Part shown: piece after piece, positions 6,428 to 55,766 of the stretch
Numbering within the stretch: the first letter of the stretch is position 1
Layout of the letters: every line of letters begins with the position of its first letter
NCBI GenBank assembly: GCA_910578275.1
Contig: CAJTPR010000005.1
Location: 109,030-173,029, forward strand
Origin: an uncultured Bacteroidales bacterium
GTDB taxonomy: Bacteria; Bacteroidota; Bacteroidia; Bacteroidales; P3
DNA: 64,000 bases
Reading direction: 5' to 3'
The notes under the pieces: generated by a model
The model's database searches: none
What the model saw: only the letters and a program-made list of their open reading frames with translations
Told to the model about the DNA's origin: nothing
Translations under genes and position numbers: made by a program

Positions 6428-9400
6428 ATGAAAGCACGCTGCCTTTGGATGGCCGTTTTCGCGGCATTTTTCCCGGTATCCGTCCGGGCGCAGACCGGAC
6501 AAGGAATCGCGGTGAACCCGAAATCGGAAACCTTGCTGGAAATGGTTTCCGGCACCGAATACGGGTTGGAATTCCGTAACCGATTGGGCGGAATAGACGA
6601 GGCGGCCTGTTTTTCAGTGCCGCAGGGAGCCTATTCCACGGCCTCCGTGGCCGGGATACCCCGGCAGTTCACCACGTTGTCCGTCCGCGGCTATGCGTTT
6701 ACGAACAAGGCGGGTCGTCCCATGTTGCCGGTGCGCGTGGAAATGATCGAGGTGCCGCAAGGGGCGGTGCCGCGCGTGGTCTATGGCAAGACGGCCTACA
6801 AGGACGTCGACCTGGCAAAAGCGGGTTATCCGCAGCCGTTATATCCCGCCCAGCCGCCCGTAAGCAAGAGTGCCGGGCGGACTCCCGATTTCGTGTACGA
6901 CGTGGAGGCTTATCGCGCCGACGGATTCTTTGCCGACGAGCAAGACGAGGAATTGGTGGAAGTGGAGGTTTTGGGCGAGATGCGGGGCACCCGTATCGCG
7001 AAGATATTGGTGAAGCCGTTCCGATACAATGCGGCCAGGCATATGCTGCGCGTGTATACCACGCTCGACTTTGAAATCGTGTTCGACCATGCCGACTGGC
7101 AGTCCACTTACGAGAAGCAAAGACGCTACGCTTCGCCGGCTTTCGGTTTCTTGCGCGGCGAACTGGCCAACCCCTCCAAGGCCGCGATCCACGAGCGGCC
7201 GCTGCGCTACGTGATCGTCGCCGACCCCATGTTCAAGGATTCCTTGCAGAAGTTCGTGGACTGGAAGACCCGTTTCGGCTTTGAAGTCGTGCAGGCCTAT
7301 ACGGATGAGCCCGAAGTGGGCAAGACGGCATCCTCCATTCGCGCCTACCTCAAGAAACTTTACGATGAAGCCACGTCGGAAGCCCCCGCACCGTCTTACG
7401 TGCTCTTCGTGGGAGACCTGGCGCAGGTTCCTACCCAGACTTACGGGAAAAACGATTGGTCCGGGAGCGGCAAGCATTATTCCGACCTGTATTTGTGCGA
7501 ATATACCGGCGACCATTTTCCCGAAGTGCAGTATGGCCGTATGTCGGCCACCACGGTGGAAGAACTGATGCCGCAGATTGACAAGCTCATCCACATGGAA
7601 AGCCTTTCGCCCGGGCACGCCGCTTTCCTGGACACGGCCGTGGCGATTGCCGGCAGCGATGACGGTCGATTCGACGATACCCACCTCAATCCTACGATCA
7701 ATTACATCTGCTCGTATTATCTCAAGGATACGCTGCAAAGGCATACCTACAAATATCTTGCACCTGAATCGAGTTGGAAGTCCGACGACATCTTGCGCCG
7801 TTTCAACGACGGGCTTTCCTTTATCCTTTATACGGCTCATGGCGATTATGACGGCTGGTCGGATCCGAGCGTGAACGTGTCGGACGTGAACACGATGACC
7901 AACAAGGGCAAGTATCCGTTGGCCATCGGAAATTGCTGCCTTACGGGCAAGTTCGACATGAGCACCTGCTACGGGGAGGCCTTGTTGCGCAAGAAAGACG
8001 CCGGCGCGGTGGGGTATATCGGTGCTTCCGACGTGACTTATTTCGACCAGGACGTCTATTGGGCGATCGGTTATACCGAGCGTATCGCCAAAGGCGTGGT
8101 GCAGACTTACGAGAAGACGGAACTTGGCGCGTTCGATGCCCTCCACCATACGCATGGCGAGGCGTATGAAGACTGGGCGTTGACCGCCTACGAGATCGTC
8201 CATGCGGGCAACATGGCCGTCCAGCGCGCCAATCAGGACCTCGAGGACTATTACTGGGAAGTCTATCACGTTTTCGGAGATCCCTCCTATATGCCTTACT
8301 TGCACGGAGCGGATTATCCGCAAGCCGATTACAGGGATGAATTGATGGTGGGTGAAACGTCCTTTTCCATCCAGACCGTTCCCTACGCCCGGGTGACGAT
8401 AAGCAAGGACGGTGAAATCCTGGGATTCGCCATGGCCGATCCGCATGGTTCCGCCGAAGTGCCCTTGCATGGATTGGATGAGCCGGGAGAATACGACTTG
8501 GTCGTGGCCGCACAGGGCCATCTGCCCTTGCATGCCAAGTTGAACGTGCTGGTGCCGGAGGGAAAATACGTCATCGTGGCCGCTTCCCAGTGGCTGGATG
8601 TCGAAGAAAAGCCGGTGAAAAGCGTCCTTTACGGTGAAACCTACAAGCTTCGCCTTTCCTTGCGCAACGTGGGCGAGGAAACGGTCGGCAAGGTGGAAGC
8701 GGACCTCTTTTCCGATGACCGCTACCTGACGGTGGAAGACGGCCGGTACACGTTGACGACCCCGCTTCAAGCCGGTGAAGAAAAAGTCCTGGATCATTCT
8801 TTCGTCATGAAAGTCGGTACCCATGTCCCGAACAACCATAGGCTTGCCTATGGCGTGCGCCTCGTACTCGACGATACAAGCCAAGAGGCGTCGACCAGGG
8901 AATTCCACGTAAGGGCGGAGGCTCCCGAATTGAAAGTGGTCGCCTTCCGGATAGACGATTCGTCGGGAAGCAAGCCCAACGGCGTCCTTGACAACGGTGA
9001 AACGGTGAAAGGCACGATACAAGTCATGAACATGAGCCGGATCAAGGCTTCCGACGTGAAGGTGAAGGTTTCCTCTTCGTCCGATTTCCTGATCCTGCCC
9101 GACGAGGAAATGGAATTGGGCGACCTGGACGGACAGCAAGGCAAGGAACTTTCCTTTTCGTACGGTGCCCGGCAGGCCGGCGTGTATTATGCTTTCTATT
9201 GGTTGGATTTCACGTTCGAGTCGAAGGGCCGCACGAGCAAGGACAGCGTGCGCTCGTACATCGAGCCGGTGGTGGAGACGTTCGAGAGCGGGGATTTCAC
9301 GTTCGTGGATTGGGACAAGTCTTCGGATTGGGAAATAGACGGGAACAAGTTTCATGGCGGAAAGTTCAGCGCTGCCAGCAAGACCATCGCCGATAACGAA

Positions 9401-9997
9401 AGCAGCAGTTTGAAAATCAACGTGAACGTGCCTGTAAACGACAGGGTGGGCTTTTATTACCTTACTTCATCCGAGGTATTGCACGATGTCTTGGGCGATT
9501 TCCTTGAATTTTACATAGACGGGAAGCGTCAGGGGCGTTGGGCGGGAGAAACCGCGGCCTGGGGATATGCCGAATACCCCTTGGCGGCAGGGCCGCATAC
9601 GTTGGAGTGGAGATACAAGAAAGATGCTTCCGACGCCCAAGGCGCGGACAAGGTATGGATAGACGACGTGCGTCTTCCCGTCGGCACGCATGCCCCCGTA
9701 GGCGTGGCCAACGAAGACAGGCAGGGAGAGGGTGGAAACGAGGGCTTTTTGCGTTCCGTCTCGTATGCGGAGGGGACGTTGCGGGTGGCTTACGATACGG
9801 ACAAGCCTAGGACCGGTTCGCTGTATGTGGTGGATGTCAACGGGCGACGCTTGAAGACCCTGGCCAAGGCCTGGCAGGTACAAGGGCGGGGCCAGGCTGA
9901 TCTTGTCCTGGGAAAGGTTCCTGCGGGCGTGTATCTCCTGGTGTTTGAAAACGCGAAGGAAACACCCCGTGCCATGAAGTTCGTCGTGTTCCGGTAG
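6428..9997 (+). CDS. Peptidase C25 (gingipain-family cysteine peptidase) with a T9SS C-terminal sorting domain
   Basis: Signal peptide MKARCLWMAVFAAFFPVSVRAQ from the ATG at 6428. C25-like core (YVIVADPMFKDSL, YVLFVGDLAQVPT, ILYTAHGDYDGW, IGNCCLTGKFD). The last ~70 aa (GSLYVVDVNGRRLKTL...GVYLLVFENAKETPRAMKFVVFR) look like a T9SS type-A CTD. Confidence 0.8.
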   Translation: MKARCLWMAVFAAFFPVSVRAQTGQGIAVNPKSETLLEMVSGTEYGLEFRNRLGGIDEAACFSVPQGAYSTASVAGIPRQFTTLSVRGYAFTNKAGRPMLPVRVEMIEVPQGAVPRVVYGKTAYKDVDLAKAGYPQPLYPAQPPVSKSAGRTPDFVYDVEAYRADGFFADEQDEELVEVEVLGEMRGTRIAKILVKPFRYNAARHMLRVYTTLDFEIVFDHADWQSTYEKQRRYASPAFGFLRGELANPSKAAIHERPLRYVIVADPMFKDSLQKFVDWKTRFGFEVVQAYTDEPEVGKTASSIRAYLKKLYDEATSEAPAPSYVLFVGDLAQVPTQTYGKNDWSGSGKHYSDLYLCEYTGDHFPEVQYGRMSATTVEELMPQIDKLIHMESLSPGHAAFLDTAVAIAGSDDGRFDDTHLNPTINYICSYYLKDTLQRHTYKYLAPESSWKSDDILRRFNDGLSFILYTAHGDYDGWSDPSVNVSDVNTMTNKGKYPLAIGNCCLTGKFDMSTCYGEALLRKKDAGAVGYIGASDVTYFDQDVYWAIGYTERIAKGVVQTYEKTELGAFDALHHTHGEAYEDWALTAYEIVHAGNMAVQRANQDLEDYYWEVYHVFGDPSYMPYLHGADYPQADYRDELMVGETSFSIQTVPYARVTISKDGEILGFAMADPHGSAEVPLHGLDEPGEYDLVVAAQGHLPLHAKLNVLVPEGKYVIVAASQWLDVEEKPVKSVLYGETYKLRLSLRNVGEETVGKVEADLFSDDRYLTVEDGRYTLTTPLQAGEEKVLDHSFVMKVGTHVPNNHRLAYGVRLVLDDTSQEASTREFHVRAEAPELKVVAFRIDDSSGSKPNGVLDNGETVKGTIQVMNMSRIKASDVKVKVSSSSDFLILPDEEMELGDLDGQQGKELSFSYGARQAGVYYAFYWLDFTFESKGRTSKDSVRSYIEPVVETFESGDFTFVDWDKSSDWEIDGNKFHGGKFSAASKTIADNESSSLKINVNVPVNDRVGFYYLTSSEVLHDVLGDFLEFYIDGKRQGRWAGETAAWGYAEYPLAAGPHTLEWRYKKDASDAQGADKVWIDDVRLPVGTHAPVGVANEDRQGEGGNEGFLRSVSYAEGTLRVAYDTDKPRTGSLYVVDVNGRRLKTLAKAWQVQGRGQADLVLGKVPAGVYLLVFENAKETPRAMKFVVFR

Positions 9998-16426: not shown

Positions 16427-16456
16427 TTCACCCCGGCAAAGCCCATAAATCCTTGG
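16427..16456 (+). repeat. Degenerate partial copy of the 78-bp repeat unit, upstream of the riboswitch
   Basis: TTCACCCCGGCAAAGCCCATAAATCCTTGG versus the unit TTCGCCTCGGCAAAGTCCAGGAATCCTTGG; about 25 of 30 positions identical by eye. Confidence 0.5.
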
Positions 16457-16537
16457 TTTGTGTATTAGGATTTTTTAAGTCGTTGTTTTTCAGTCAGATT
16501 TTTGATATTTGAAAATTTGCGTACTTTCGTGGCGGCT

Positions 16538-16708
16538 TTTTGGTCAAGGCGAAAAGGTAAGGCCTTGATAATTAGGAACACGGTGTGAATCCGTGACAGT
16601 ACCCTCTACTGTGATTCTCGTTGAAGCCGGGCAATAGGTCACTGTGTCGCATGAAAACCGGCATGGGAAGGCGTCCGGGGGAGAGATAAGTCAGGAGACT
16701 AGCCAAAG
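16538..16708 (+). promoter_or_regulatory. Cobalamin (B12) riboswitch aptamer
   Basis: Conserved core AGGAACACGGTGTGAATCCGTGACAGTACCC..ACTGT, then GGGAAGGC, and the B12 box AAGTCAGGAGACTAGCC at 16688-16704. A near-consensus -7 box TACTTTCG sits at 16522-16529. The next gene downstream is a TonB-dependent receptor. Confidence 0.85.
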
Positions 16709-16818
16709 CGAGCATGGCTTTCATTCTTCCGGGGAAAGGGGGAGGAAAGCACGGAGGGACGCCGTTCTTGCGTTCCTGTTTCCGGAAATGTTCTCATAGG
16801 GTCCGAAAGTCAGTTGAG

Positions 16819-17128
16819 CTTTCATCCGACGTTTTATTCGCCTCGGCAAAGTCCAGGAATCCTTGGCCTCTGCGCTCGGCTTCAGTAAAACGTTGGCTTT
16901 CATCCGACGTTTTATTCGCCTCGGCAAAGTCCAAGAATCCTTGGCCTCTGCGCTCGGCTTCAGTAAAACGTTGGCTTTCATCCGACGTTTTATTCGCCTC
17001 GGCAAAGTCCAGGAATCCTTGGCCTCTGCGCTCGGCTTCAGTAAAACGTTGGCTTTCATCCGACGTTTTATTCGCCTCGGCAAAGTCCAAGAATCCTTGG
17101 CCTCTGCGCTCGGCTTCAGTAAAACGTT
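16819..17128. repeat. Tandem array, 4 x 78 bp, near-identical units
   Basis: The unit CTTTCATCCGACGTTTTATTCGCCTCGGCAAAGTCCAGGAATCCTTGGCCTCTGCGCTCGGCTTCAGTAAAACGTTGG starts at 16819, 16897, 16975 and 17053. Copies 1 and 3 have CCAGGAAT while copies 2 and 4 have CCAAGAAT. No unique spacers are present. Confidence 0.95.
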
Positions 17129-17142
17129 CAATTTGATTCGAG

Positions 17143-19164
17143 ATGGTTGACAGGATCCTTGTCGTCGTTTTCTTTCTTGCTTGCGGCTTGCTTCCGGCAG
17201 TTCGCCTTTCGGCGCAGGAGCAGGCACCGCGCGGGGAGGATTCGGTAAGCCGGCACTACTATCTGGACGAAGTGGTGATTTCCGCTCCGTCGAAGGAAAT
17301 CATCCGGCCGCAGAAGTTGGACGGAAAGGTGTTGGAACGCCTCAACAGTCTTTCGGTGGCAGATGCCATCCGTTTCTTTTCCGGCGTGCAGATCAAGGAC
17401 TACGGCGGGGTGGGAGGCATCAAGACCGTCAATATACGCAGCATGGGAACCAACCAGATGGGCGTTTACTACAACGGCATCCAGTTGGGCAACGCCCAGA
17501 ACGGGCAAATAGACTTGGGCAAGTTCTCGTTGGAAAACATAGACGAGATCGCGCTCTACAACGGACAGAAAAGCGATATATTCCAAAGCGCGCGCGAGTT
17601 CGGTTCCTCCGGCAGTATTTATCTCAACAATCGTCGTCCCGGATTCGAGGAAGGCAGGAACTTTCATCTCCGGGCGGCCATGAAGACCGGATCGTTCGCG
17701 TTGGTGAACCCTTCCTTGCTCATGGAATACAAGGTGGGCGAGAAGTTCAACGTGTCGATGAACGCCGAGGTGCTCAACTCCGATGGCAAGTACAAGTTCC
17801 GCTATCGCAGGCGCACGCCTTCGGGCGACCTGGCTTACGACACGACGGCGGTGCGTCAAAACGGCGACATCAACGCCGTGCGCGTGGAAGCGGGGCTGCA
17901 ACACTATTATTCCAACACGGGATGCTGGAAGTTCCAGGCCTATCACTACAATTCCGAACGCGGCGTGCCGGGCGCGATCGTCAACAATGTCTGGCGGCGC
18001 GGGGAACGGCTTTGGGACCGCAACAGTTTCGTGCAGGCTTCTTTCCAGGACGAGTTTTTCGACCGCTGGCAGTTGCGCCTCAACGCCAAGTACGCTTACG
18101 ACTACACGCATTACGTGAACAACGACGACAAGCTGGTTCGCTCCGACAACGTCTATGTGCAACGCGAGGCATACGCTTCGTTGGCCAACAAGCTGGAGGT
18201 TTTCCGCTGGTGGGACGTTTCGCTGGCCTACGACTTCCAGTGGAACGGCATGGAGGAATACATGGACGTGAGCCGTTTTTCGCACTACTTGGCGGCGGCC
18301 ACGGCGATGAACCTTTTCGACCATGTGAAAATACAGGCCTCCGTGCTGGGTACTTTCGTCAACGAGGAGGCTTCACGCCGCCACAAGGCTCCCGACAAAC
18401 GCAAGGTCACGCCCGGCTTGTTCCTTTCCTACCAGCCTTTCAGGCGCATAGGATTGGTCGTCAGCGCGTTCTACAAGCAAGCCTATCGTTATCCCACGTT
18501 CAACGACCTTTACTATACCGACATGGGCAACGCCTCCTTGGAACCGGAACTGGCCATCCAGCACGATGTGGGTGTCGGTTATTCCCTGGAACGTAAAAAA
18601 GGCGTGTTCCGTCAATTCGAGATCAAGGCGGACTATTATTACAACCGCGTAAAGGACAAGATCGTGGCCTATCCCAAAGGGCAACAGTTCCGTTGGACGA
18701 TGCTCAATCTGGGCATGGTGAAAATCAACGGCGTGGATGTGTCTTCGCGTTTCATGCTGCAATTCCCGCATCAATGGTCGTTGACAGGCACGTTGCAGTA
18801 TACGTATCAGACGGCCGTGGACGTTACCGATCCCGCCGACACCTATTACGGCGACCAGATTCCCTACATTCCTTGGCATAGCGGTTCGGTGACGGGCATG
18901 CTGGCATGGCGCAACTATGCGCTCAACTACGGCTTCATCTATGTCGGGAAACGTTACAATCAGCAGGAGAACATAGTGTATAACTACACACAGCCGTGGT
19001 ACACGCACGATCTTTCGCTCTCGGGGGCGTGGAAAATAAGGAAAAAGGTGCTCTTGAAAGCCACGTTGGAGGTGAACAACCTGCTTTCGCAGGACTACGA
19101 CGTGATACTCAATTACCCGATGCCCGGGCGGAATTACCGTATCTCGCTGGTTGTTGAATATTGA
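17143..19164 (+). CDS. btuB: TonB-dependent outer-membrane receptor, BtuB-like (riboswitch-linked)
   Basis: 673 aa. Signal peptide, plug domain (LDEVVISA...LNSLSVADAIRFFSGVQIKDYGGVGGIKTVNIRSMG), beta-barrel body and a terminal aromatic residue (...RISLVVEY). Its position behind a cobalamin riboswitch supports a corrinoid receptor role. Confidence 0.8.
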   Translation: MVDRILVVVFFLACGLLPAVRLSAQEQAPRGEDSVSRHYYLDEVVISAPSKEIIRPQKLDGKVLERLNSLSVADAIRFFSGVQIKDYGGVGGIKTVNIRSMGTNQMGVYYNGIQLGNAQNGQIDLGKFSLENIDEIALYNGQKSDIFQSAREFGSSGSIYLNNRRPGFEEGRNFHLRAAMKTGSFALVNPSLLMEYKVGEKFNVSMNAEVLNSDGKYKFRYRRRTPSGDLAYDTTAVRQNGDINAVRVEAGLQHYYSNTGCWKFQAYHYNSERGVPGAIVNNVWRRGERLWDRNSFVQASFQDEFFDRWQLRLNAKYAYDYTHYVNNDDKLVRSDNVYVQREAYASLANKLEVFRWWDVSLAYDFQWNGMEEYMDVSRFSHYLAAATAMNLFDHVKIQASVLGTFVNEEASRRHKAPDKRKVTPGLFLSYQPFRRIGLVVSAFYKQAYRYPTFNDLYYTDMGNASLEPELAIQHDVGVGYSLERKKGVFRQFEIKADYYYNRVKDKIVAYPKGQQFRWTMLNLGMVKINGVDVSSRFMLQFPHQWSLTGTLQYTYQTAVDVTDPADTYYGDQIPYIPWHSGSVTGMLAWRNYALNYGFIYVGKRYNQQENIVYNYTQPWYTHDLSLSGAWKIRKKVLLKATLEVNNLLSQDYDVILNYPMPGRNYRISLVVEY

Positions 19165-19167
19165 CCG

Positions 19168-20355
19168 ATGCCGGAAATGAAAAGGAAACGACTCCTCTCA
19201 TGGCTCTGCCTCGTGCCGTTGCTGTTTGCCGCTTGCCGCAAGGACGAGATCGTCGTGCCCGCCGAGTACGAACTCTTGCCGCTTCCGGTAAGGACGGAGG
19301 CCGGTTTCGCCCCCGACGAACCGATCGGCATGTACCTGCTCAACGAGGGCAACATGGGAAGCAACAAGGCTTCGATCGATTACGTGGATTTCGTGAACGG
19401 CTGTTACGTGCGCAATATCTACGCCGGGCGTAATCCGTCCGTCGTCAAGGAACTGGGCGACGTGGGCAATGACATCCAGGTTTACGGGAGCAAGCTCTAC
19501 GCGGTCATCAATTGTTCGCACAAGGTGGAAGTGATGGACGCGCGGACGTGCGTACGTGTCGGGCAGATAGACATTCCCAATTGCCGCTATATCCGTTTTT
19601 CGTGCGGCAAGGCCTACGTTTCGGCCTATGTCGGTCCGGTTTCGATGGATCCCGACGCGCAACCGGGCGCGGTGTTCGAGATAGATACCGCCACGCTTTC
19701 GGTAACCGGCCAGGTTACGGTGGGCTATCAGCCCGACGAACTGGACATATCGGGCGAATATGTCTACGTGGCCAATTCCGGAGGCTATCGCGCTCCGGAC
19801 TACGATCATACGGTTTCGGTGGTGGAACGCCAGGCGATGAGGCAGGTGCGCAAGATTGCCGTGGGACCGAACCTGAACGGCTTGCGAAAGGATCGTTACG
19901 GCAGGTTGTGGGTCAGTTCGCACGGCGATTACGGAAAAAGGCCGTCCCGCCTCTATCTGTTGGCGGAGAAAGACGGATTGTCCCGGGAAATGGCGGTGAG
20001 TGACACGTTCGATCTGCCTTGCCACCGTTTCACGATAGCGGGCGATTCGCTCTATTATTGCGGCCTTTCAAGGACCGGCCCGGACGAGGCGGACCGCGTT
20101 TCCTACGGTATCGTGGACGTGCGTACCATGCAGCATGCCGCTTCCTTTATCACCGACGGTACCGAACGCGAGATCAAGACGCCTTACGGAATAGCCGTGA
20201 ACCCGTATGACGGCGACATTTTCGTTACCGATGCCAGGAATTACGTTTCCAGCGGCGTGTTGCACTGCTACGGAAAAGACGGCAAGCGGAAATGGAGCGT
20301 GCGTACGGGCGACATACCGGCGCACATGGTTTTCATTTACAAGAAAAACGGATGA
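19168..20355 (+). CDS. Surface lipoprotein, YncE/DUF5074-like beta-propeller (BtuG-like candidate)
   Basis: Lipobox LLFAAC|RKDE. It contains YLLNEGNMGSNKASIDYVDF, YVANSGGY and repeated propeller-like blades. It lies directly after the receptor. The BtuG assignment is an inference from architecture and context. Confidence 0.6.
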   Translation: MPEMKRKRLLSWLCLVPLLFAACRKDEIVVPAEYELLPLPVRTEAGFAPDEPIGMYLLNEGNMGSNKASIDYVDFVNGCYVRNIYAGRNPSVVKELGDVGNDIQVYGSKLYAVINCSHKVEVMDARTCVRVGQIDIPNCRYIRFSCGKAYVSAYVGPVSMDPDAQPGAVFEIDTATLSVTGQVTVGYQPDELDISGEYVYVANSGGYRAPDYDHTVSVVERQAMRQVRKIAVGPNLNGLRKDRYGRLWVSSHGDYGKRPSRLYLLAEKDGLSREMAVSDTFDLPCHRFTIAGDSLYYCGLSRTGPDEADRVSYGIVDVRTMQHAASFITDGTEREIKTPYGIAVNPYDGDIFVTDARNYVSSGVLHCYGKDGKRKWSVRTGDIPAHMVFIYKKNG

Positions 20356-21614
20356 TGGAAAATACGGGACATGCCTGGTTGCCTCTTTTGTTTTTAGGTC
20401 TGGCCGCGGCTTTTTGTTCGTGCAAGGAAGAAATACCGATGGTCAGTCTCGGCATAGACGACCGGTACGCGGTGGCGCGCATGCAGGCCTTGGTGCTGCA
20501 TCCCCGGTTCGACGGGGATGGCTACCTCTGGACGATGCCCGACAGCGCGGGCGATGAAACCGTCGTTTCCACCAGCCGCGACTTCGTCTTTTGCAAGGCG
20601 GTGCCGGGCGAATACGACCTTCGCTTGCGAATAGAAGACAAGACGAATCCTTACGTGCACGACGTGCATATCGTCGTGTGGGAGGAAGAAGTGGCTTACA
20701 GCCGCTATATCGCCAAGGTGTACGAATATTGTCCGGCGCCGGGGCAGTTCGTGAACGTGATGCCCGAATACGAGCCGGGAAACACCTATGCCGACATGCT
20801 CGAAAAGGCGGAAGAATCCATTTCGGGCACGAACGACGGGATGGTCTCGCTGGGGGCTTTCGGCGGTTACATCACTTTCGGCTTCGACCACAGCGTGGTG
20901 AACGTGCCGGGCGAATACGACTTCAAGATACTGGGCAATGCGTTTTATGCTTCCGAAACGCCGGATCCCGACGACCCGTATTCGGGCGGAAGCGCCGAGC
21001 CGGGCATCGTCATGGTCTCGTTCGACCGGAATGGCAACGGCATTCCGGACGACGAGTGGTACGAGTTGGCGGGTAGCGAATACTACAAGCCGCAGACCAA
21101 GCATGGCTATCGGATAACCTATCATCGTCCCGATCCGCTCAAACCCGCCACACCCGACGAGCGGAATCCCTCCGTCACGGATACTTCCTATATCCGCTTT
21201 ACGGACAACGAGGGCGGCACGGGGCATGTCGCCAAGGTCGTTTTTTACAATCAGGAATATTTTCCGTGCTGGGTGAACGAGGCAAGCCTCACGTTCGGCG
21301 GCACCAAATTGGCGGACAATGCCGTGGATGAGAGCGGAAACGGCAGTGGCTACGTGCAGCATGCCTACGACTGGGGCTATGTGGACAATCATCCCAACGG
21401 AGTGCGGGACAAGTCCAGTTTCGATATCGGTTGGGCGGTAGACGGGAACGGCTACCCCGTGGATCTTCCTTGCATCGATTTCGTGCGCGTATATACGGGT
21501 GTGAGCCAGTCTTGCGGTTGGCTGGGAGAAATATCCACCGAGGTATCGCGGGCGGAAGACTTGCATGTGGAAGAACGATTACGGGACGGACGGATGAAAA
21601 ACGACGAACGATGA
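20352..21614 (+). CDS. Hypothetical cell-surface lipoprotein of the B12 locus
   Basis: The start MMENTGHAWLPLLFLGLAAAFCSC (lipobox) overlaps the previous stop by ATGA. An Ig/PKD-like N-terminal module (EYDLRLRIEDKTNPYVHDVHIVVWEEE) is followed by a YCPAPGQFVN-containing domain. I do not recognise the family. Confidence 0.6.
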   Translation: MMENTGHAWLPLLFLGLAAAFCSCKEEIPMVSLGIDDRYAVARMQALVLHPRFDGDGYLWTMPDSAGDETVVSTSRDFVFCKAVPGEYDLRLRIEDKTNPYVHDVHIVVWEEEVAYSRYIAKVYEYCPAPGQFVNVMPEYEPGNTYADMLEKAEESISGTNDGMVSLGAFGGYITFGFDHSVVNVPGEYDFKILGNAFYASETPDPDDPYSGGSAEPGIVMVSFDRNGNGIPDDEWYELAGSEYYKPQTKHGYRITYHRPDPLKPATPDERNPSVTDTSYIRFTDNEGGTGHVAKVVFYNQEYFPCWVNEASLTFGGTKLADNAVDESGNGSGYVQHAYDWGYVDNHPNGVRDKSSFDIGWAVDGNGYPVDLPCIDFVRVYTGVSQSCGWLGEISTEVSRAEDLHVEERLRDGRMKNDER

Positions 21615-23071
21615 AGAAATCATTCTTTACGACGTGTCTTGTCACGTTGCTTGCCGCCGGAGGCCTTCATGCGGGGGAACCGGACTACGCCGAGGGCGTC
21701 TTCTTTCTCAACGAGGGCTGGCTGGGGCACCAGAACGGAACGATAAACCATTTGTCACAGGACGGGCGTTGGAACTATCGGGTTTTCCAACAGGAGAATC
21801 CGGGCATGGAGTTGGGATGTACCGCCACGTACGGCACCGTCTTCAAAGGCCGGATGTACATCATTTCCAAGCAGGCGCGCGATTTCGGCTCGTCGGTGAC
21901 GGGCGGGCGTATCACCGTGTGCGATGCCGTCACTATGAAATGTATCAGGCAGATAGGGAACATAGCCACCGATTCGGCCGGCCGGTCGATAGCCGACGGG
22001 CGCGCCTTTACGGGTATCGATTCCTGCAAAGGCTACGTATCTACCAGCAACGGTATCTATGTCATGGATCTCGGGACATTGGAGGTGGAAGGGCTCGTTG
22101 CCGGCAGCGGCGGCGCGGGAGGCTTGTATTCCGACCAGTGCGGCACGATGTTGCATTACGGCGATCGGGTCTTCGCCTTGCATCAGAAGAAAGGCCTGCT
22201 GGTCATTGATGCCGGAAACGACACGGTCGTGCACGTGATAGGTGCTCCCGTGGAAAGAACGCCGGACGGAAAGACGGTACGGCGGGGCTTCGGCTCCATC
22301 GTGCAGGCCAAGGACGGCAGCATGTGGTTGAGCGTGACCGGCGACGTGACGGGAAGCGGAAACACGGTAGACTATTTCTTCCGTTTCGATCCTGACAACC
22401 TTGACACGACGCGGATAAGCCTGCCTGCCGGTTACGGATTGCCCAATTCATGGTATTCCTGGACGGCGGATGCCTTTTGCGCCTCGGCCGTGCAGAACAG
22501 GCTGTATTGGAAGAAGCAAGGAGAGAACCGTTACAAGAGCAGCGTGATTTGCTGCTATGACATCGACAAGGGCGAATGCCGCGATATTTTTGACGCCAAG
22601 GACATGGGATGGTACATGTATTGCGGCGCGGGCTTCCGTCTGCATCCTCGCACGGACGAGATCTACGTTTCGCTCTATCAGGACAATCTCAAGCAGGCCT
22701 ACGAGACCTTGCGCCTGAGTGCCGACGGGGAATTGCTGGAAACCTATGAGATGGCGGCCAATTGCTGGTTCCCGGCCATGCCGGTATTCCCGGACGGGCA
22801 GCATCCGGACACGCCCGACGATCCCGTGGCCGGTGAGGCCTGCAAGCCCTCGTCCCTCCTGCATGTTTATCCGAACCCGACCGTGGATGCGGTGAACGTG
22901 GACGTTTCCGGACCGGCTTTCTTGGAAGTGCTGGCCGTCGACGGTCGCCGGATCTTTGGCAAGGAAGTCGGTGCGGGCGTGCAAGAAGTGAGACTCGGAC
23001 GCTCCGGTGTCTATTTCGTCCGCGTGTCGGCAAACGGAGGTGTGGCCGTGAAACGGGTCATAAGACGATAA
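21611..23071 (+). CDS. Secreted DUF5074/YncE-like beta-propeller paralog with a T9SS C-terminal sorting domain
   Basis: ATGA overlap with the upstream gene. Non-lipoprotein signal peptide MKKSFFTTCLVTLLAAGGLHAG, then FFLNEGWLGHQNGTINHL. The C-terminus LHVYPNPTVDAVNVDVSG...GVYFVRVSANGGVAVKRVIRR is T9SS CTD-like. Confidence 0.65.
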   Translation: MKKSFFTTCLVTLLAAGGLHAGEPDYAEGVFFLNEGWLGHQNGTINHLSQDGRWNYRVFQQENPGMELGCTATYGTVFKGRMYIISKQARDFGSSVTGGRITVCDAVTMKCIRQIGNIATDSAGRSIADGRAFTGIDSCKGYVSTSNGIYVMDLGTLEVEGLVAGSGGAGGLYSDQCGTMLHYGDRVFALHQKKGLLVIDAGNDTVVHVIGAPVERTPDGKTVRRGFGSIVQAKDGSMWLSVTGDVTGSGNTVDYFFRFDPDNLDTTRISLPAGYGLPNSWYSWTADAFCASAVQNRLYWKKQGENRYKSSVICCYDIDKGECRDIFDAKDMGWYMYCGAGFRLHPRTDEIYVSLYQDNLKQAYETLRLSADGELLETYEMAANCWFPAMPVFPDGQHPDTPDDPVAGEACKPSSLLHVYPNPTVDAVNVDVSGPAFLEVLAVDGRRIFGKEVGAGVQEVRLGRSGVYFVRVSANGGVAVKRVIRR

Positions 23072-23100
23072 ATCGAAAAACAATAAAAATCATCAGAATC

Positions 23101-24255
23101 ATGAAAAAGATCATTTTTTGCGGATGGCTCATGGTGTATATGCTCATGAGCGTGACGGCCCAGGATTCCGCGTTCTCGTTCGAGGACGTCAAGACCTGGG
23201 TGGGAGAAGGTTCCAATCGCGCCGTCTTGGTGGTTGACTGGAACAGTGAAAAGAAGGAGCAAGCCTTGGTATGGGGTTTCCGCTGGAACGGCGAGGCCAC
23301 CGGCTACGACATGCTGGCCGCCGTGGCCAAGGAAGATCCGCGTTTTGTGCTGTTGGCCGAAGAAAGCATCTACGGCAATACGGTGGCGGGTCTCGGTTTC
23401 AATCCCCGTTCGCCCTATCAGACCAAGTTGATATACGACAGGAACGGCGAAGCTGTCGGATACACGCCGGCAGACGGTGTGGTGATGGCCGATTCCAACG
23501 ATTACGGGAATTGGTCGTGTTCCGATACGGCGGCCTTGTGGCAAGCGGAGCACTGGACCGTGGGCTACTGGTCTTATTATGTCAAGGATCAGGCCGAGGA
23601 TGACTTCGGTTATGCCAGCACGGGCGCGACAGGACGTCAATTGACGGATGGTTGCGTGGACGGTTATTCCTTTGCCCTCGTTTCCGATACGACCACGGGC
23701 GGGGTTCCGCGCATGCCCTACGAATTTGTCTTGCCGTATGCGGATACGATGATAGCCGTCACGGGCGTAAGTCTCGACAAGCAGGCGGCCGAACTGACGG
23801 TGGGTGCCGGGCCCTTGCAATTGACGGCGACCGTGACGCCGGCCCAGGCCGTGAACAAGGACGTCGTTTGGCTTTCCACCGACCAGGCCGTGGCGACGGT
23901 GAGCGCGGGCGGCCTGGTGACACCCGTTTCGGCCGGTGAGGCCAGGATCGTCGTCAAGACCGTGGACGGCGGCTTTGCCGACACTTGCGTGGTGAGGGTG
24001 AAGGAAAATGTGGCGAACGAATCCGGTTTGCCGGTCGTCCTGGGACGGATTTATCCGAATCCGGCCGTCGAGGTGGCGAACGTGGAGGTTTGCCGCGATG
24101 CCGTACTCGAAGTATTCGACCTGAACGGCCGCACGGTTTTCCGCAAGCAGGTTTCCGCCGGCATCCAGACAATCGCGCTCGACAAGAGCGGCGTTTACCT
24201 TGTCCGTGTATCGGCCGGCGACCGGGTTTACGTGAAGCGTCTGGTGAAGCGATAG
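23101..24255 (+). CDS. Secreted protein with a Big_2 (bacterial Ig-like) domain and a T9SS C-terminal sorting domain
   Basis: Signal peptide ...MLMSVTAQ. Big_2-like VTGVSLDKQAAELTVGAGPLQLTATVTPAQAVNKDVVWLSTDQAVATVSAGGLVTPVSAGEARIVV. C-terminus IYPNPAVEVANVEV...GVYLVRVSAGDRVYVKRLVKR. Confidence 0.65.
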   Translation: MKKIIFCGWLMVYMLMSVTAQDSAFSFEDVKTWVGEGSNRAVLVVDWNSEKKEQALVWGFRWNGEATGYDMLAAVAKEDPRFVLLAEESIYGNTVAGLGFNPRSPYQTKLIYDRNGEAVGYTPADGVVMADSNDYGNWSCSDTAALWQAEHWTVGYWSYYVKDQAEDDFGYASTGATGRQLTDGCVDGYSFALVSDTTTGGVPRMPYEFVLPYADTMIAVTGVSLDKQAAELTVGAGPLQLTATVTPAQAVNKDVVWLSTDQAVATVSAGGLVTPVSAGEARIVVKTVDGGFADTCVVRVKENVANESGLPVVLGRIYPNPAVEVANVEVCRDAVLEVFDLNGRTVFRKQVSAGIQTIALDKSGVYLVRVSAGDRVYVKRLVKR

Positions 24256-24289
24256 GGTTTCCGCAAGTCCGTTTTATGTTTTTTCCTTC

Positions 24290-24320
24290 GGGCGGTCCTG
24301 GACGGGCCGCCCTTTTTTTT
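24290..24320 (+). terminator. Rho-independent terminator closing the B12 locus
   Basis: 9-bp GC-rich stem GGGCGGTCC/GGGCCGCCC with a 5-nt loop, followed by T8. Confidence 0.8.
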
Positions 24321-24323: not shown

Positions 24324-24331
24324 TACCTTTG
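24324..24331 (+). promoter_or_regulatory. -7 promoter box (TACCTTTG)
   Basis: Perfect TAnnTTTG, 35 nt before the ATG at 24366. Confidence 0.45.
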
Positions 24332-24365
24332 CGCCGACAGAAGAAATCCCAAAACCTTCAAGCCG

Positions 24366-25229
24366 ATGAAAACCCTCAAATCCGTTTTTCTTGCCGTTTC
24401 GTTATTGCTTGTTTCCTCATCCGTCCGGGCGTTGGTGCCTCCGCAGTTCGTCGATGAACTTTTCGAAGTGAATCCCGGCACGCGGCCTTCGCGCATCATC
24501 CTCAAGTATTTCCAGCCTGTGGACAAGGGTTTCAAGGTGGAAATAGGCGAACAGGTGAACAGCGTCCTGGTGCTGGACTTGAAAGACACCCGCCCCTCGA
24601 CCTATTGGGAATACGGCCTCGACGGTCACCTGAAAGAAAAGTATGAATTGGAATACAATGAAAACGGTCTGCTTTCGACGGTCTCCAAAAAAGACAAGAA
24701 CCAGAATCCCCAGCTTCATGTGCAGTACATCTATTCCAATCCCAAGAACGAAAAGACGCTGAAGGAAAAAAGGGTCTATAACTCGACGAACATGAAAGTG
24801 GTCCGCACCGAGGTCTTTTTGCGTGACAAGCAGGGGCGCGTTTCGACGAAGCGATATTTGGACGAGGCCGGCCATGAGATGTATTCCGATACTTACGCCT
24901 ACAATTCCGACGGTTGGGTGGAAGACGAGTTGCGCAAGGATGCCTCGGGCAACAAGCGCAGCGAGACCGAGACTTCCTACGACGAGGAGGGCAGGGTCAT
25001 TTCCGAAATCGTGTACAACAGTCAAGGAAAGATGATAGCGCAAACCAAATATTCCTATAACGTGAAAGGGTTGCCAGACAATATCATTACCACCACCACG
25101 GAAGTGAAGGCCGAACGTTATACGGTCGAGTACACTTATGACGAACGGGGAAACTGGATACAGCAAATCATCTACAAGGGCGTGGGGCATATGCCCGAGA
25201 CCATTCTGGTCCGCTTGCTGACCTATTAG
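24366..25229 (+). CDS. Hypothetical secreted protein with YD/RHS-like short repeats
   Basis: Signal peptide MKTLKSVFLAVSLLLVSSSVRA, then repeated Y-x-Y-N-x-x-G-like units (YELEYNENGLL, YAYNSDGWV, SYDEEGRV, YTYDERGNW). The 5' part of the track ORF (23985-24365) was rejected. Confidence 0.55.
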   Translation: MKTLKSVFLAVSLLLVSSSVRALVPPQFVDELFEVNPGTRPSRIILKYFQPVDKGFKVEIGEQVNSVLVLDLKDTRPSTYWEYGLDGHLKEKYELEYNENGLLSTVSKKDKNQNPQLHVQYIYSNPKNEKTLKEKRVYNSTNMKVVRTEVFLRDKQGRVSTKRYLDEAGHEMYSDTYAYNSDGWVEDELRKDASGNKRSETETSYDEEGRVISEIVYNSQGKMIAQTKYSYNVKGLPDNIITTTTEVKAERYTVEYTYDERGNWIQQIIYKGVGHMPETILVRLLTY

Positions 25230-28719: not shown

Positions 28720-29730
28720 ATGCGTTGCAAGTGCGCCATACGTGGGTCGATAATGGGCTTGCTCTTGGGAGCGGGCGCATGGGGCGTTCGGGCACAGGAC
28801 TTGCATCTTTCCCAGTTGTTTTCCAATCCGCTCTATACCAATCCGGCCTTTGCCGGTACTTCCGAATGCGGACGCATTTCGGCGGCCTATCGGAACCAGT
28901 GGCCCAACGTGGGCGGCGGTTTTTCCATGGCCACCGTGTCTTACGACCAGTATTTCCGTGCCCTTCACGGAAGCATAGGCGCGTATGTGAATGCCGATTT
29001 CCAAGGCGGGGACGTCTATCGCGACATCACGGCGGCGTTCATGTATTCGTTCCGTGCCCGGCTCGGACAACGCCTTTATCTGAGCCTGGCCGTGCAGGGA
29101 GCCTACATGAACAAGTACGTGAACTGGAATTCGCTCACGTTCGCCGACCAATACGATCCTTTTACCGGCCTGATTCCGGGTCGTCCCACCGACGAGGCCT
29201 TGCCGAACACCCCGATGAACAAGCATTATGCCGACGTGGGGGCGGGTCTCATGTTGTACGGGGAATATTTCTACGTGGGATTTTCGGCGCTTCATCTCAA
29301 CCGGCCCGACATGGGCTTTACGGCTACCAGCCGCATGGACATGAAGTTCAGCGGCCAGGTGGGAGGGATGATCTATTTCAGGAAAAGTTACGGTGAACGC
29401 CACAGCGAGCGTGATTTCTCGCTTTCTCCGAACATTGTCTATACGCAGCAGGGCAAGTTCACCGAGTTCAATTACGGCTTGTACGGCAATTTCTATCCCA
29501 TCGTGGTAGGCGTATGGTTCCGTCAGAGCTTTACCAATCCCGACGCCGTCATCTTCCTGTTCGGCGGGGAGTTCAAGGGCGTAAGGCTTGCTTACAGTTA
29601 CGACCTGACCGTTTCAAAGCTCGTCAAGAGCGGAGGCAGTCATGAGATTTCGCTCGGTTTCCGTTTGCCTTGCGCGAGGAAGCACACCTACCGTCAGGAA
29701 ATCATGCCGGTGCCGTGCCCCAAGTTCTAA
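28720..29730 (+). CDS. PorP/SprF-family type IX secretion system membrane protein
   Basis: AQDLHLSQLFSNPLYTNPAFAG is the family-typical N-terminus, followed by a beta-barrel-like body ending ...HEISLGFRL. An alternative start lies at 28753. Confidence 0.75.
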   Translation: MRCKCAIRGSIMGLLLGAGAWGVRAQDLHLSQLFSNPLYTNPAFAGTSECGRISAAYRNQWPNVGGGFSMATVSYDQYFRALHGSIGAYVNADFQGGDVYRDITAAFMYSFRARLGQRLYLSLAVQGAYMNKYVNWNSLTFADQYDPFTGLIPGRPTDEALPNTPMNKHYADVGAGLMLYGEYFYVGFSALHLNRPDMGFTATSRMDMKFSGQVGGMIYFRKSYGERHSERDFSLSPNIVYTQQGKFTEFNYGLYGNFYPIVVGVWFRQSFTNPDAVIFLFGGEFKGVRLAYSYDLTVSKLVKSGGSHEISLGFRLPCARKHTYRQEIMPVPCPKF

Positions 29731-29785: not shown

Positions 29786-31300
29786 ATGCTGAAGCAAACA
29801 TTCAAGGCAATCCTTGCCGTTGGTTGCATGGCCTTTCTGGCTTCTTGCAATTCGTCCACGAACCAATCCCAATCCACAGGTTGGGGAGTAAACGACCCGA
29901 GTTGGGGCGGGTTCCAGCGCAACGACAACTATACGCAGCCCGTACCCTTGCGCTTTGTTTTCATCCAAGGCGGATTCTTCACCATGGGGCGCAACCAGGA
30001 AGACCTCAAGTACGAACATCACAATGCCCCGCATCCGGCCACGGTAAGTTCTTTCTACATGGACGAGGTGGAAACCTCCAACATCGACTACAACGAGTAC
30101 ATCTATTGGCTGCAACGCATCTACGGCCAGGATTATCCCGAAGTCGTGGAACGTGCCCGTCCCGATGCCTTGGTATGGAACAACATTTCGGGCTATCGCG
30201 ACCCCATGCAGGATTATTTTGAAAATCCGGCCTACAACAACTATCCCGTCGTAGGGGTTACCTGGGAACAGGCCCGCGACTATTGCGACTGGCGTACCGA
30301 CCGTGTCAACGAGTATCTTCTCTATCAGGGCAAGATCCTCAAGAAAGACATGGGGCAGACGGCCGACAACAACTTCAACACTGACGCCTATCTGGCCGGA
30401 CAATACAGCGGTATCGTCAACAAGGGCCTTACCGACATGAACCCCAATGCCAGCGAAAAGACGCGCGGCGTACAGAAGAAAGACGGTATCCTGATCGAGA
30501 AGTTGCGTCTTCCCACCGAAGTGGAATGGGAGTATGCGGCTTTGGCCTTGATGGGAAACAGCAACCAGGAACGTGTGGCCGAAAGGCGCATCTATCCTTG
30601 GAACGGCAAGCCGCTTCAGGTCCGTTCCCCGGAAAGCCCGTATCGTGGCAACATGATGGCCAACTTCGCCCGCGGCAAGGGTGACTACATGGGAACCGCC
30701 GGCGCCTTGAACGACGGTGCCGACTACACTGCTCCCGTCTATTCCTATTTTCCCAACGACTTCGGTTTGTACAACATGTCGGGCAATGTGGCCGAATGGT
30801 GCCTGGACGTATATCGTCCCCTTACGTTCGAAGATGCCAACGACTTGAATCCTTTCCGTGGCAACGTATATACGACCGTGGTTCGCGATGAGGACGGCTT
30901 GATTGCCGAGAAGGACAGTCTGGGTCGTATCGCCTACCGTCCCTTCGCCGACGAGGAACTGGCCGATCGGGCCAACTTCCAGCGTGCCGACAACCGCAAC
31001 TATCTCGATGGCGATTACGAGTCGGCCATCGTGGACGATTGGTTGGCCAAGCCTGAAAGCGACGAAGGCCCGGAAAAGAAATCCACCACTTCGCTCTTGT
31101 ATGAATACGGTACCAGTTCGCTTATTTCCGACAAGTCGCGCGTGATCAAGGGCGGCTCGTGGAAAGACCGTGCCTATTATCTCTCTCCGGCAACGCGTCG
31201 CTACATGGACCAGGACAAGAGCGCCGCCTGGGTCGGTTTCCGTTGCGCGATGTCGAGGGTAGGTTCGGCCAACGGCGGTACCGTCAGTGCCAAACGATAA
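29786..31300 (+). CDS. gldJ: GldJ-like lipoprotein (GldJ/GldK/PorK family, FGE-sulfatase fold)
   Basis: Lipobox FLASC|NSS. STGWGVNDPSWGGFQRN...FVFIQGGFFTMGRNQED...SFYMDEVETSN matches my recollection of the GldJ N-terminal region. C-terminal KGGSWKDRAYYLSPATRRY. Confidence 0.7.
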   Translation: MLKQTFKAILAVGCMAFLASCNSSTNQSQSTGWGVNDPSWGGFQRNDNYTQPVPLRFVFIQGGFFTMGRNQEDLKYEHHNAPHPATVSSFYMDEVETSNIDYNEYIYWLQRIYGQDYPEVVERARPDALVWNNISGYRDPMQDYFENPAYNNYPVVGVTWEQARDYCDWRTDRVNEYLLYQGKILKKDMGQTADNNFNTDAYLAGQYSGIVNKGLTDMNPNASEKTRGVQKKDGILIEKLRLPTEVEWEYAALALMGNSNQERVAERRIYPWNGKPLQVRSPESPYRGNMMANFARGKGDYMGTAGALNDGADYTAPVYSYFPNDFGLYNMSGNVAEWCLDVYRPLTFEDANDLNPFRGNVYTTVVRDEDGLIAEKDSLGRIAYRPFADEELADRANFQRADNRNYLDGDYESAIVDDWLAKPESDEGPEKKSTTSLLYEYGTSSLISDKSRVIKGGSWKDRAYYLSPATRRYMDQDKSAAWVGFRCAMSRVGSANGGTVSAKR

Positions 31301-47227: not shown

Positions 47228-47254
47228 CCGAAAAAAGGAAAACATAAACATAAG

Positions 47255-48817: not shown

Positions 48818-48818
48818 C

Positions 48819-49607
48819 ATGAGCGGCGGATTATATTCGACATCGCACGAAGAAATAGACAAGACGTACGATCCCAAGAAGATCAAGCCGTACGGCGACA
48901 CGATGAACGACGGCAAGACGCAACTGAGTTTCACCTTGCCCGTGCCTTGCGGCGAGGAAGCCGTGGAAGCGGCCAAGCAGTTGTTGCGCAAGATGGGATT
49001 CGATAACCCGCAAATCGTGTATTATCACGAACTGACGGAAGGTTTCACGTTCTTCAACGCCTACGGCGCTTGCACGCACACGGTCGACTACACGGACATT
49101 CACGTGCCCAAGGTTGAATCGTCGGTGATGGGCATGGAAGAGACCGACGCCTACATCAAGGAACATATCGGTCGCAAGATCGTGGTGGTGGGTGCCAGCA
49201 CGGGAACGGACGCGCACACGGTGGGCATCGACGCGATCATGAACATGAAGGGTTTCGCCGGGCACTACGGCCTGGAACGCTACGAGATGATCGACGCCTA
49301 TAACCTGGGAAGCCAGGTTCCCAACGAGGAGCTTATATCCAAGGCTCTCGAACTGGAGGCCGATGCGATATTGGTGTCGCAGACCGTCACGCAAAAGGAC
49401 GTCCATATCCAGAACATGACACAGATGATCGAGATGCTGGAAGCCGAAGGTCTGCGCGACAAGTTGATCGTTTGTTGCGGCGGCCCGCGGATTACCTACG
49501 AATTGGGCAAGGAACTCGGTTTCGACGCCGGTTTCGGCATGAATTCGTATGCCGACGACGTGGCTTCCTACCTGGCGCAGGAGATTGCCGTGCGCAAGGG
49601 AAAATAG
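48819..49607 (+). CDS. kamE: Lysine 5,6-aminomutase beta subunit (B12-binding)
   Basis: 262 aa. Base-off/His-on cobalamin motif DAHTVG in VVGASTGTDAHTVGIDAIMN, with a Rossmann-like B12-binding domain. Confidence 0.85.
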   Translation: MSGGLYSTSHEEIDKTYDPKKIKPYGDTMNDGKTQLSFTLPVPCGEEAVEAAKQLLRKMGFDNPQIVYYHELTEGFTFFNAYGACTHTVDYTDIHVPKVESSVMGMEETDAYIKEHIGRKIVVVGASTGTDAHTVGIDAIMNMKGFAGHYGLERYEMIDAYNLGSQVPNEELISKALELEADAILVSQTVTQKDVHIQNMTQMIEMLEAEGLRDKLIVCCGGPRITYELGKELGFDAGFGMNSYADDVASYLAQEIAVRKGK

Positions 49608-55764: not shown

Positions 55765-55766
55765 TT

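Follow-up and report, generated by a model that had tools for sequence, protein, structure and literature searches.

Predicted type IX secretion cargo in a riboswitch-led corrinoid-uptake operon of Bacteroidales, and an uncharacterised domain linked to B12 riboswitches in several phyla

Competition for vitamin B12 shapes gut communities, and the model of how Bacteroidota capture corrinoids rests on Bacteroides thetaiotaomicron, whose accessory uptake proteins are all lipoproteins processed by signal peptidase II (PMC12751083). Could part of such a capture apparatus be delivered to the cell surface by the type IX secretion system (T9SS) instead? The question is raised by an operon of five genes in a stretch of 64,000 nucleotides (hereafter the window, meaning this whole stretch) from contig CAJTPR010000005.1 of an uncultured Bacteroidales bacterium. 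A preliminary description, made from the letters of the sequence, had taken the operon for a corrinoid-uptake unit whose last two proteins are T9SS cargo rather than lipoproteins. Our analysis confirms the underlying observation, and at the level of sequence it supports the interpretation and shows the arrangement to be general. We consider it probable that the locus is a riboswitch-repressed corrinoid-uptake operon with a T9SS-exported outer capture layer feeding BtuG and BtuB. It is a variant of a known B12-uptake system, and its most novel element is the N-terminal stretch of the fifth protein, of about 195 amino acids (aa), which we call P5N. The unit is composed as follows, CTD standing for the C-terminal domain that serves as T9SS sorting signal:

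16522-16721, plus strand, aptamer of a cobalamin riboswitch, heading the operon (Rfam RF00174)
16813-17128, plus strand, tandem repeat of 78 bp in the leader, 4 copies (Tandem Repeats Finder)
17143-19164, plus strand, btuB-like gene (gene 1), 673 aa
19168-20355, plus strand, btuG-like gene (gene 2) for a lipoprotein propeller, 395 aa
20352-21614, plus strand, gene for a btuH-like lipoprotein (gene 3), 420 aa
21611-23071, plus strand, protein 4, BtuK1-like DUF5074 propeller with CTD (nt 22865-23068), 486 aa
23101-24255, plus strand, protein 5, P5N followed by Big_2 and CTD, 384 aa
24290-24320, plus strand, intrinsic terminator closing the unit, hairpin and T8

Is this one unit under B12 control? 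The aptamer matches RF00174 over the full model (1-189) with 94 bits (E 4.2e-22; the gathering score is 31.5), and 16538, from where the preliminary description had started a unit headed by a riboswitch, falls within its span. Both start/stop overlaps on which that description relied are present as ATGA (20352/20355, where the ATG of the btuH-like gene overlaps the btuG stop, and 21611/21614, where the start of protein 4 overlaps the btuH stop), and the remaining gaps are of 3 and 29 nt. The unit closes with GGGCGGTCC-TGGAC-GGGCCGCCC followed by T8, a hairpin with a stem of 9 bp, 8 of them G-C pairs, and a loop of 5 nt, which is, as had been claimed, the sole strong terminator-like site in 16-25 kb. 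Terminator-like sites are not enriched overall in our consensus scan for terminators and promoters (10 found vs 11.3 expected from shuffles), so that the scan is uninformative beyond this one strong terminator, and Bacteroidota promoters lie outside its coverage; it finds no terminator-like site between the aptamer and the btuB ATG. Taken together, the layout suggests that the five genes are co-transcribed.

The space between the aptamer and the btuB ATG holds a repeat array that the preliminary description did not mention (period 78, 4.0 copies, 98% matches). Each unit of 78 bp is predicted to form an imperfect hairpin, about 65 nt long (RNA fold z-score -4.7). Contig L001, from another strain, has 2 copies of this repeat vs the 4 of the window. 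Apart from these, the window has only one degenerate piece of the unit, at 16434-16456, on the upstream side of the riboswitch.

The first three genes provide the core of a corrinoid-uptake system. Gene 1, taken earlier for a BtuB-like receptor, has a Plug domain (Pfam) and finds its best PDB match, over the full length, in BtuB1 of B. thetaiotaomicron (8BLW_A, E 1.8e-121), in agreement with that assignment; it does not reach the cutoff of TIGR01779, the equivalog of the E. coli type. Gene 2, which had been called BtuG-like from its architecture of lipoprotein and propeller, does match the seven-bladed propeller BtuG1 (8PTF, 8PTD and 8BLW_B, E 5.6e-35), besides a weak match to DUF5074 (47.6 bits), and behind its lipobox, LLFAAC, stands RKDE, which has the look of a signal for surface export. 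Gene 3 had passed for an uncharacterised lipoprotein and is BtuH-like instead: it matches residues 390-662 of 8BLW_B, which are the BtuH half of the BtuGH fusion (E 1.8e-79), and BtuH2 (7BIZ, E 1.7e-46), with a weak PKD-like N-terminal part preceding a BtuH-type C-terminal domain predicted to bind B12. Its signal peptide ends in ...AAAFCSC, the last letter being the lipobox cysteine, and is followed by KEE.

The last two proteins are of another make. By inspection they have no lipobox cysteine, whereas their BtuG- and BtuH-like neighbours have one, as had been noticed before. Their signal peptides, also read by inspection, are MKKSFFTTCLVTLLAAGGLHA followed by GE in protein 4 and MKKIIFCGWLMVYMLMSVTA followed by QD in protein 5, with cleavage by signal peptidase I predicted after ...GGLHA and ...SVTA, respectively. 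The proposal that both end in T9SS CTDs was examined by profile search, and both score above the cutoff (23) of TIGR04183, the model of the type A CTD, protein 4 with 36.5 and protein 5 with 48.5 bits; protein 5 also passes Por_Secre_tail of Pfam (PF18962, 33.4 bits, cutoff 27). Over 80 aa the two CTDs share 49% of their residues, which implies selection. With its predicted signal peptides the pair resembles the type A CTD cargo known from gingipains and from other surface proteins of Porphyromonas or Flavobacterium, which combine a Sec signal peptide with a CTD of about 70 aa; here, too, the CTD exceeds the TIGR04183 cutoff and T9SS genes are nearby:

28720-29730, plus strand, PorP/SprF (TIGR03519, 197.7 bits, cutoff 90.6)
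29786-31300, plus strand, GldJ-like lipoprotein (TIGR03524, 419.9 bits, just under the cutoff of 458)

With these two genes in the window, a T9SS is present in the organism at least in part.

The preliminary description had compared both tails with that of a C25 peptidase encoded at 6428. This likeness did not hold up well: the tail of the C25-like open reading frame (ORF) shows only a weak similarity to the two CTDs (E 0.015-0.05) and no TIGR04183 match at E<1e-3, and for these two reasons it was dropped as a CTD reference. The ORF itself (6428-9997) matches the PorU2 N-terminal model with 51 bits and the T9SS sortase model with 47.5 bits, both far below the cutoffs, and instead of being ordinary cargo it may be PorU-like or gingipain-like.

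How general is the arrangement? The identical locus is found on at least 19 contigs from metagenomes or metagenome-assembled genomes (MAGs), and about 75 of the best 120 homologues of protein 4 carry a precomputed Por_Secre_tail. A scan of one genome per species with the pattern NE[DG]W[FY]GH returned 544 relatives, of which the best 80 loci were kept; they belong to Prevotella/Segatella, Muribaculaceae, Porphyromonadaceae, Tannerella, Parabacteroides, Dysgonomonas, Massilibacteroides and oral taxon 274. The DUF5074 gene is preceded on the same strand by btuG and btuH in 69 of the 80 loci, and by btuB, btuG and btuH in 64, and a P5N-bearing ORF lies within the locus in 66; loci without one of the genes are mostly interrupted by contig ends. 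A riboswitch-like element occurs at most 700 nt upstream of btuB in 59 of the 65 loci that hold btuB, and Rfam confirmed 14 out of 14 riboswitch elements in the seven loci checked. The co-occurrence of these genes behind cobalamin riboswitches elsewhere, which the preliminary description had thought worth looking for, holds in dozens of species.

In some genomes the link to B12 control is more direct. A Prevotella MAG (L021) has an RF00174 element of 75 bits followed by a P5N-CTD gene (TIGR04183, 38 bits) and then a DUF5074-CTD gene (53 bits), with btuB, btuG and btuH on the strand opposite to these riboswitch-led cargo genes, and a dedicated riboswitch directly before CTD-cargo genes recurs in Parabacteroides faecalis (L031) and in loci L065, L027, L040 and L017. 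DUF5074 and P5N are, moreover, fused in one gene, in either order, in four proteins (P0126, P0212, P0266 and P0275) and in 29 ORFs of the loci. These findings bear on the possibility that the last two genes code for ordinary T9SS surface proteins, with a promoter of their own and functionally unconnected to the adjoining B12 operon. Such a view could draw on co-transcription being read solely from overlaps and short gaps, and on DUF5074 T9SS proteins known in other contexts, such as the one upregulated during gliding in Chryseobacterium (PMC11613158). However, the conserved neighbourhood of btuG and btuH (69 of 80 species genomes), dedicated riboswitches directly before the cargo genes in several of them, the overlap of the protein 4 start with the btuH stop, the homology of protein 4 to the B12 binder BtuK1 and the riboswitch linkage of P5N in other phyla (see below) all speak against it. 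We regard it as strongly disfavoured already, and as very improbable.

The lipobox contrast is also general. A regular expression used as lipobox heuristic flags 5 of 149 DUF5074- or P5N-bearing ORFs vs 56 of 71 BtuG and 47 of 71 BtuH proteins, which supports the non-lipoprotein status of the former, and the five flagged cases look like cysteines of the h-region. Of 142 complete DUF5074- or P5N-bearing ORFs, 85 end in a tail that matches TIGR04183 at E<=0.01, and the related tails of the other 57 do not score as such. A recurrent tail of the form ...GINIIRMSDGT.KKV.VK ends the P5N-DUF5074 fusions of L058, L041, L052, L055, L066, L071 and other Prevotella/Segatella loci; that of L058, the sole one scanned individually, matches neither TIGR04183 nor another T9SS tail model, and this type of tail is possibly a divergent CTD class.

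What could the two exported proteins do? Protein 4 had been described as a second propeller paralog. That it is a seven-bladed propeller stands, but it is not a close paralog of gene 2, to which it is 24% identical over 149 aa. It is a strong DUF5074 protein (339.5 bits, Pfam) whose best PDB sequence match, at an identity of only about 20%, is 9S6C, the structure of BtuK1 with cyanocobalamin (2026 review, PMC13616437). The same structure is the top Foldseek match (E 2.9e-16, TMt 0.81) of its AlphaFold2 model (pLDDT 80), with BtuG2 and BtuG3 ranking lower, and both comparisons indicate that protein 4 is BtuK-like rather than a close BtuG paralogue. The contacts reported between BtuK1 and B12 are E23, W25, H28, T60, N62, K76, E77 and N102 (PMC13616437); the numbering of the review is offset by 12 from that of the 9S6C chain, and six contacts map to the stated residue identities in our alignment. 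Protein 4 retains five of these six (E35, W37, H40, T71 and K87) and has Q88 where BtuK1 has E77. Its residues 34-40, NEGWLGH, align with NEGWFGH of 9S6C, and the motif NE[DG]W[FY]GH is shared without exception by 13 diverse homologues. Protein 4 most likely binds corrinoid on the face of the propeller, via the conserved NEGWxGH loop. The propeller begins at residue 28, and neither a lipobox nor a PKD match was found by sequence inspection and Pfam, so that the protein is BtuK-like in fold without having the architecture described for BT1486/BT1487, namely an N-terminal PKD domain in a lipoprotein processed by signal peptidase II.

Here another explanation has to be considered, namely that both CTD proteins are regulated by B12 but do not bind corrinoids, and act as scaffold or stalk, as adhesin to B12-rich partners or host carriers, in vesicle biogenesis as BtuL does, or in the remodelling of corrinoids or their release from a carrier. 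There are precedents in BtuL and BtuK2 of B. thetaiotaomicron, which are B12-regulated and showed no cobalamin binding (PMC12751083). As far as protein 4 is concerned, however, the full B12 loop of BtuK1 is retained, which according to the review is missing in BtuK2 (PMC13616437).

Protein 5 was described as a Big_2 protein and rightly so (48.2 bits, Pfam), with the Big_2 domain at nt 23755-23994, between P5N (23161-23745) and the CTD (24049-24252). A search with the full-length protein is dominated by Big_2 matches and yields 3 true orthologues only, and the family searches were therefore run with the N-domain alone. P5N matches no family of Pfam-A in the version searched and no PDB sequence, and has consequently no sequence-level tie to DUF4430, BtuJ, BtuH or BtuG; its only matches to known families are weak ones, to two unstudied models, SCO2322_fam (NF040672) and PF28005, and we found no literature on SCO2322. 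A profile search of 1.84 billion representative proteins gives 1161 members at E<1e-3. P5N is usually N-terminal in long proteins, where Big_2 repeats, propellers of the DUF5074 or PQQ-like kind and a CTD follow it, and in relatives the stalk can reach over 1000 aa. Of 46 short members from other phyla, 20 have PEP-CTERM at the C-terminus and 13 a dockerin, and some members from Bacteroidota are signal peptidase II lipoproteins with an acidic export signal. Since the anchor is C-terminal and P5N sits N-terminally on an Ig-like stalk, it would be displayed distally.

The confident AlphaFold2 model of P5N (pLDDT 94) offers a lead to its function. No Foldseek match in the PDB reaches E<1e-3, and the matches of top probability (0.75-0.90) are cobalamin carriers or their beta domain: intrinsic factor (2PMV, probability 0.90), haptocorrin (4KKI) and transcobalamin, with TMt 0.64 for the transcobalamin beta domain in 5NO0 (0.62-0.69 for the isolated beta domain and 3U7Z) and 0.65-0.69 for the DUF4430-like 3U7Z. 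The resemblance to the beta domain of transcobalamin, intrinsic factor and haptocorrin is a distant one (E 0.3-1, about 10% identity), P5N being twice as large and without a sequence-profile link, and we treat this predicted likeness of fold as a lead only and not as membership. No BtuJ structure is among the listed fold matches of P5N, nor does P5N match BtuJ in sequence. P5N was also considered as a BtuL domain and rejected: BT1955 scores -2 bits against P5N in hmmsearch --max, with no BLAST match, the BtuL sequence having been recovered from a human-gut contig (L092) via the published cloning primers, and P5N is absent from 9 of 9 contigs with locus 2 of B. thetaiotaomicron. Among these human-gut contigs of B. 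thetaiotaomicron, the btuL allele of L091 is 145 nt shorter between the primer sites than in L092-L095 (1895 vs 2040 nt) and frameshifted, and is either naturally inactivated or an assembly error.

A stronger indication than the fold comes from P5N loci outside Bacteroidota, where a riboswitch of the cobalamin class (RF00174 or RF01689) stands immediately upstream of the P5N operon in 8 of the 10 loci tested:

L085, Botrimarina, RF00174
L086, Verrucomicrobiae, RF00174
L084, Desulfosarcina ovata, RF00174
L088, NCBI assembly contig, RF00174
L090, metagenome contig, RF00174
L211, metagenome contig, RF00174
L087, Fimbriimonadaceae, RF00174, marginal (32 bits)
L212, metagenome contig, RF01689
L089, metagenome contig, no riboswitch found
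L213, metagenome contig, no riboswitch found

The loci of Botrimarina, Verrucomicrobiae, Desulfosarcina and Fimbriimonadaceae we take to represent Planctomycetota, Verrucomicrobiota, Desulfobacterota and Armatimonadota. P5N can be regarded as an uncharacterised domain family, and probably a new one, in the B12 regulon of several phyla. Going further, we would suggest, though tentatively and without leaning towards it over its negation, that P5N is a new and widespread family for extracellular corrinoid capture, displayed at the tip of a stalk, held by an anchor that differs from phylum to phylum (T9SS CTD, lipoprotein signal, PEP-CTERM or dockerin), repressed by B12 riboswitches across five phyla (Bacteroidota, Planctomycetota, Verrucomicrobiota, Desulfobacterota and Armatimonadota), and possibly a distant relative, in fold, of the beta domain found in animal B12 carriers. 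The explanation by B12-regulated proteins that do not bind corrinoids gains from the weakness of the fold matches and from the pseudopilin-like N_methyl/SBP_bac_10 proteins that accompany P5N in Planctomycetota and Verrucomicrobiota; it loses from the unrelatedness of P5N and BtuL, from cobalamin carriers being the sole coherent fold signal of P5N, and from the riboswitch linkage in several phyla. All considered, we find it unlikely.

Some features of these distant loci deserve mention. The riboswitch-led P5N operon includes the pseudopilin-like N_methyl/SBP_bac_10 (DUF1559) proteins in L085, L088, L211, L212, L087 and L086, and a small DUF5522 protein often comes next after P5N in loci of this type, which hints at a different, possibly pilus-linked, apparatus for B12 capture. 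The region 1356-8816 of L084 holds an array of about 10 ORFs of 175-240 aa, including the P5N homologue through which the locus entered the set, and interspersed in this array are one cobalamin and three c-di-GMP-I riboswitches. In L213 (5001-8742) the P5N homologue is followed by ExbB, ExbD and an ORF of 330 aa, neighbours that tie P5N to TonB-energised uptake in another lineage.

How does the operon compare with what is known? It is best classed with 'locus 1' of B. thetaiotaomicron, BT1486-BT1491, which encodes BtuK1, BtuK2, BtuH1, BtuB1, BtuGH and BtuJ1. The two have riboswitch control, predicted in the present case, and a BtuK-family propeller in common, and the present BtuB is closest to BtuB1, the BtuG to BtuG1 and the BtuH-like protein to the H half of BtuGH. 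They differ in that BtuG and BtuH are fused there and encoded by separate genes here, in that the BtuK-like protein here has a T9SS CTD and neither lipobox nor N-terminal PKD, and in that BtuJ is replaced here by the P5N-Big_2-CTD protein; the BtuJ domain, DUF4465 (PF14717), was not found in any of the five operon proteins at E<=0.01. Compared with BtuK1 itself (9S6C), protein 4 shares the fold, the membership in DUF5074 and the E/W/H/T/K contacts, but BtuK1 is a lipoprotein and protein 4 has a predicted signal peptidase I signal and a CTD.

The preliminary description had called a T9SS route to corrinoid scavenging undescribed, which is true in part. Known T9SS cargo consists mainly of proteases, adhesins and glycanases, and we found no description of vitamin-capture T9SS cargo encoded in the operon of a TonB transporter, nor any link in the literature between T9SS cargo and B12 capture, and the literature that we found on DUF5074 does not concern B12; the terms 'T9SS' and 'type IX' are absent from the Btu papers searched for them. 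IPR026444 is, as we understand it, the entry of InterPro that stands for the T9SS CTD. In the BtuJ family (IPR027828), 229 of 824 members have been reported with IPR026444, 88 with the PEP-CTERM entry IPR013424, and 275 as lipoproteins, the first two entries being termed 'C-terminal extracellular targeting motifs' in that 2025 paper (PMC12751083). Varied surface targeting within one family is thus seen in BtuJ/DUF4465, and likewise in P5N, which occurs with T9SS CTD, PEP-CTERM, dockerin or lipoprotein signals; the in silico precedent in BtuJ lowers the novelty of the route. For BtuK-like propellers and for P5N we found none.

On these grounds we can picture how the operon might work. When B12 is low the riboswitch would permit the expression of the whole unit. 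BtuB would be the TonB-dependent channel in the outer membrane and BtuG its surface lipoprotein lid, and with the BtuH-like protein as a further surface lipoprotein they would make up the core and first shell. Proteins 4 and 5 would cross the inner membrane via Sec, lose their signal peptides to signal peptidase I and, by means of their type A CTDs, pass the outer membrane through the T9SS, to end anchored at the surface or released. Protein 4 would then bind corrinoid as BtuK1 does, and P5N most likely would also capture corrinoid, or strip it from a carrier, the two proteins together forming an outer capture layer that feeds BtuG and BtuB when B12 is scarce. A demand for the cofactor is apparent from the window itself, where the B12-dependent kamDE genes seen earlier are confirmed, together with kamC, all above the cutoffs of their NCBIfam models (NF052383 with 406 bits, NF052384 with 911 and NF052385 with 412):

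45746-49607, plus strand, kamC, kamD and kamE, lysine 5,6-aminomutase dependent on adenosylcobalamin

Several points weigh against this picture. Between the end of the aptamer and the btuB ATG lie 420 nt that include the repeat array, a layout that obscures the expression platform. Protein 4 has T73 at a position, possibly in contact with B12, where the family has a nearly invariant Q, and the review reports for B. thetaiotaomicron that BtuK2 binds no B12 and that the function of BtuK1 is not settled (PMC13616437). For P5N, all Foldseek matches have E>0.1 and there is no sequence tie to DUF4430 or to any PDB chain. As to export, protein 4 reaches 23.8 bits with Por_Secre_tail, under the Pfam cutoff of 27, the T9SS components in the window are two only (PorP/SprF and the GldJ-like protein), and tails of the Prevotella/Segatella type do not score as TIGR04183. 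These last points, along with the 57 of 142 related tails that fail TIGR04183, could be turned into an argument that the CTDs are relics or serve another purpose, and that the proteins stay in the periplasm or are freed by lysis or in vesicles rather than by a T9SS. Yet both CTDs of the operon exceed the TIGR04183 cutoff, and the CTD is kept across many genera, besides the selection implied by the identity between the two; relic CTDs seem to us highly unlikely. A T9SS-exported capture layer is the reading that we prefer.

If it is correct, the T9SS would take part in micronutrient acquisition, beyond its roles in proteolysis, glycan use and gliding, and a defect in B12 scavenging would be expected in T9SS mutants; the carriers of the locus include several culturable hosts, among them Parabacteroides faecalis AGMB00274 (L031), Prevotella corporis DSM 18810 (L035), Segatella hominis (L058), Massilibacteroides vaginae (L019), Dysgonomonas sp. 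PH5-45 (L016) and oral taxon 274 F0058 (L020). The data indicate that BtuK-like propellers with T9SS CTDs are encoded in such loci by many other Bacteroidales, of Prevotella, Muribaculaceae, Parabacteroides, Tannerella and Porphyromonadaceae, and P5N adds a domain family absent from the characterised B. thetaiotaomicron proteins with which it was compared. If it does capture corrinoids, P5N would also offer a new way of finding B12-capture proteins in phyla whose uptake systems are little known.

The surroundings of the operon yielded a few further observations. Directly 3' of the terminator lies a gene for a secreted YD-repeat protein (24330-25229), the ORF of which, as called, starts at 24276 and overlaps the hairpin, the true start being likely at MKTLKSVF. 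This gene is kept downstream of the operon in 3 of 3 strain contigs. Two of these, L001 and L003, diverge from the window right after about 25648, where they hold phage-like genes (PhageMin_Tail and DUF6046) and an HHH_3 (ComEA-like) gene shortened to 131 aa; in L002 this gene codes for 244 aa. The divergence has the appearance of a polymorphic prophage insertion next to the operon. Farther downstream, at about 50300-57600, the ORFs, including one of 1043 aa (52633-55764), have a third-position GC of 0.23-0.38 vs about 0.7 elsewhere, and this block is probably a recently acquired island.

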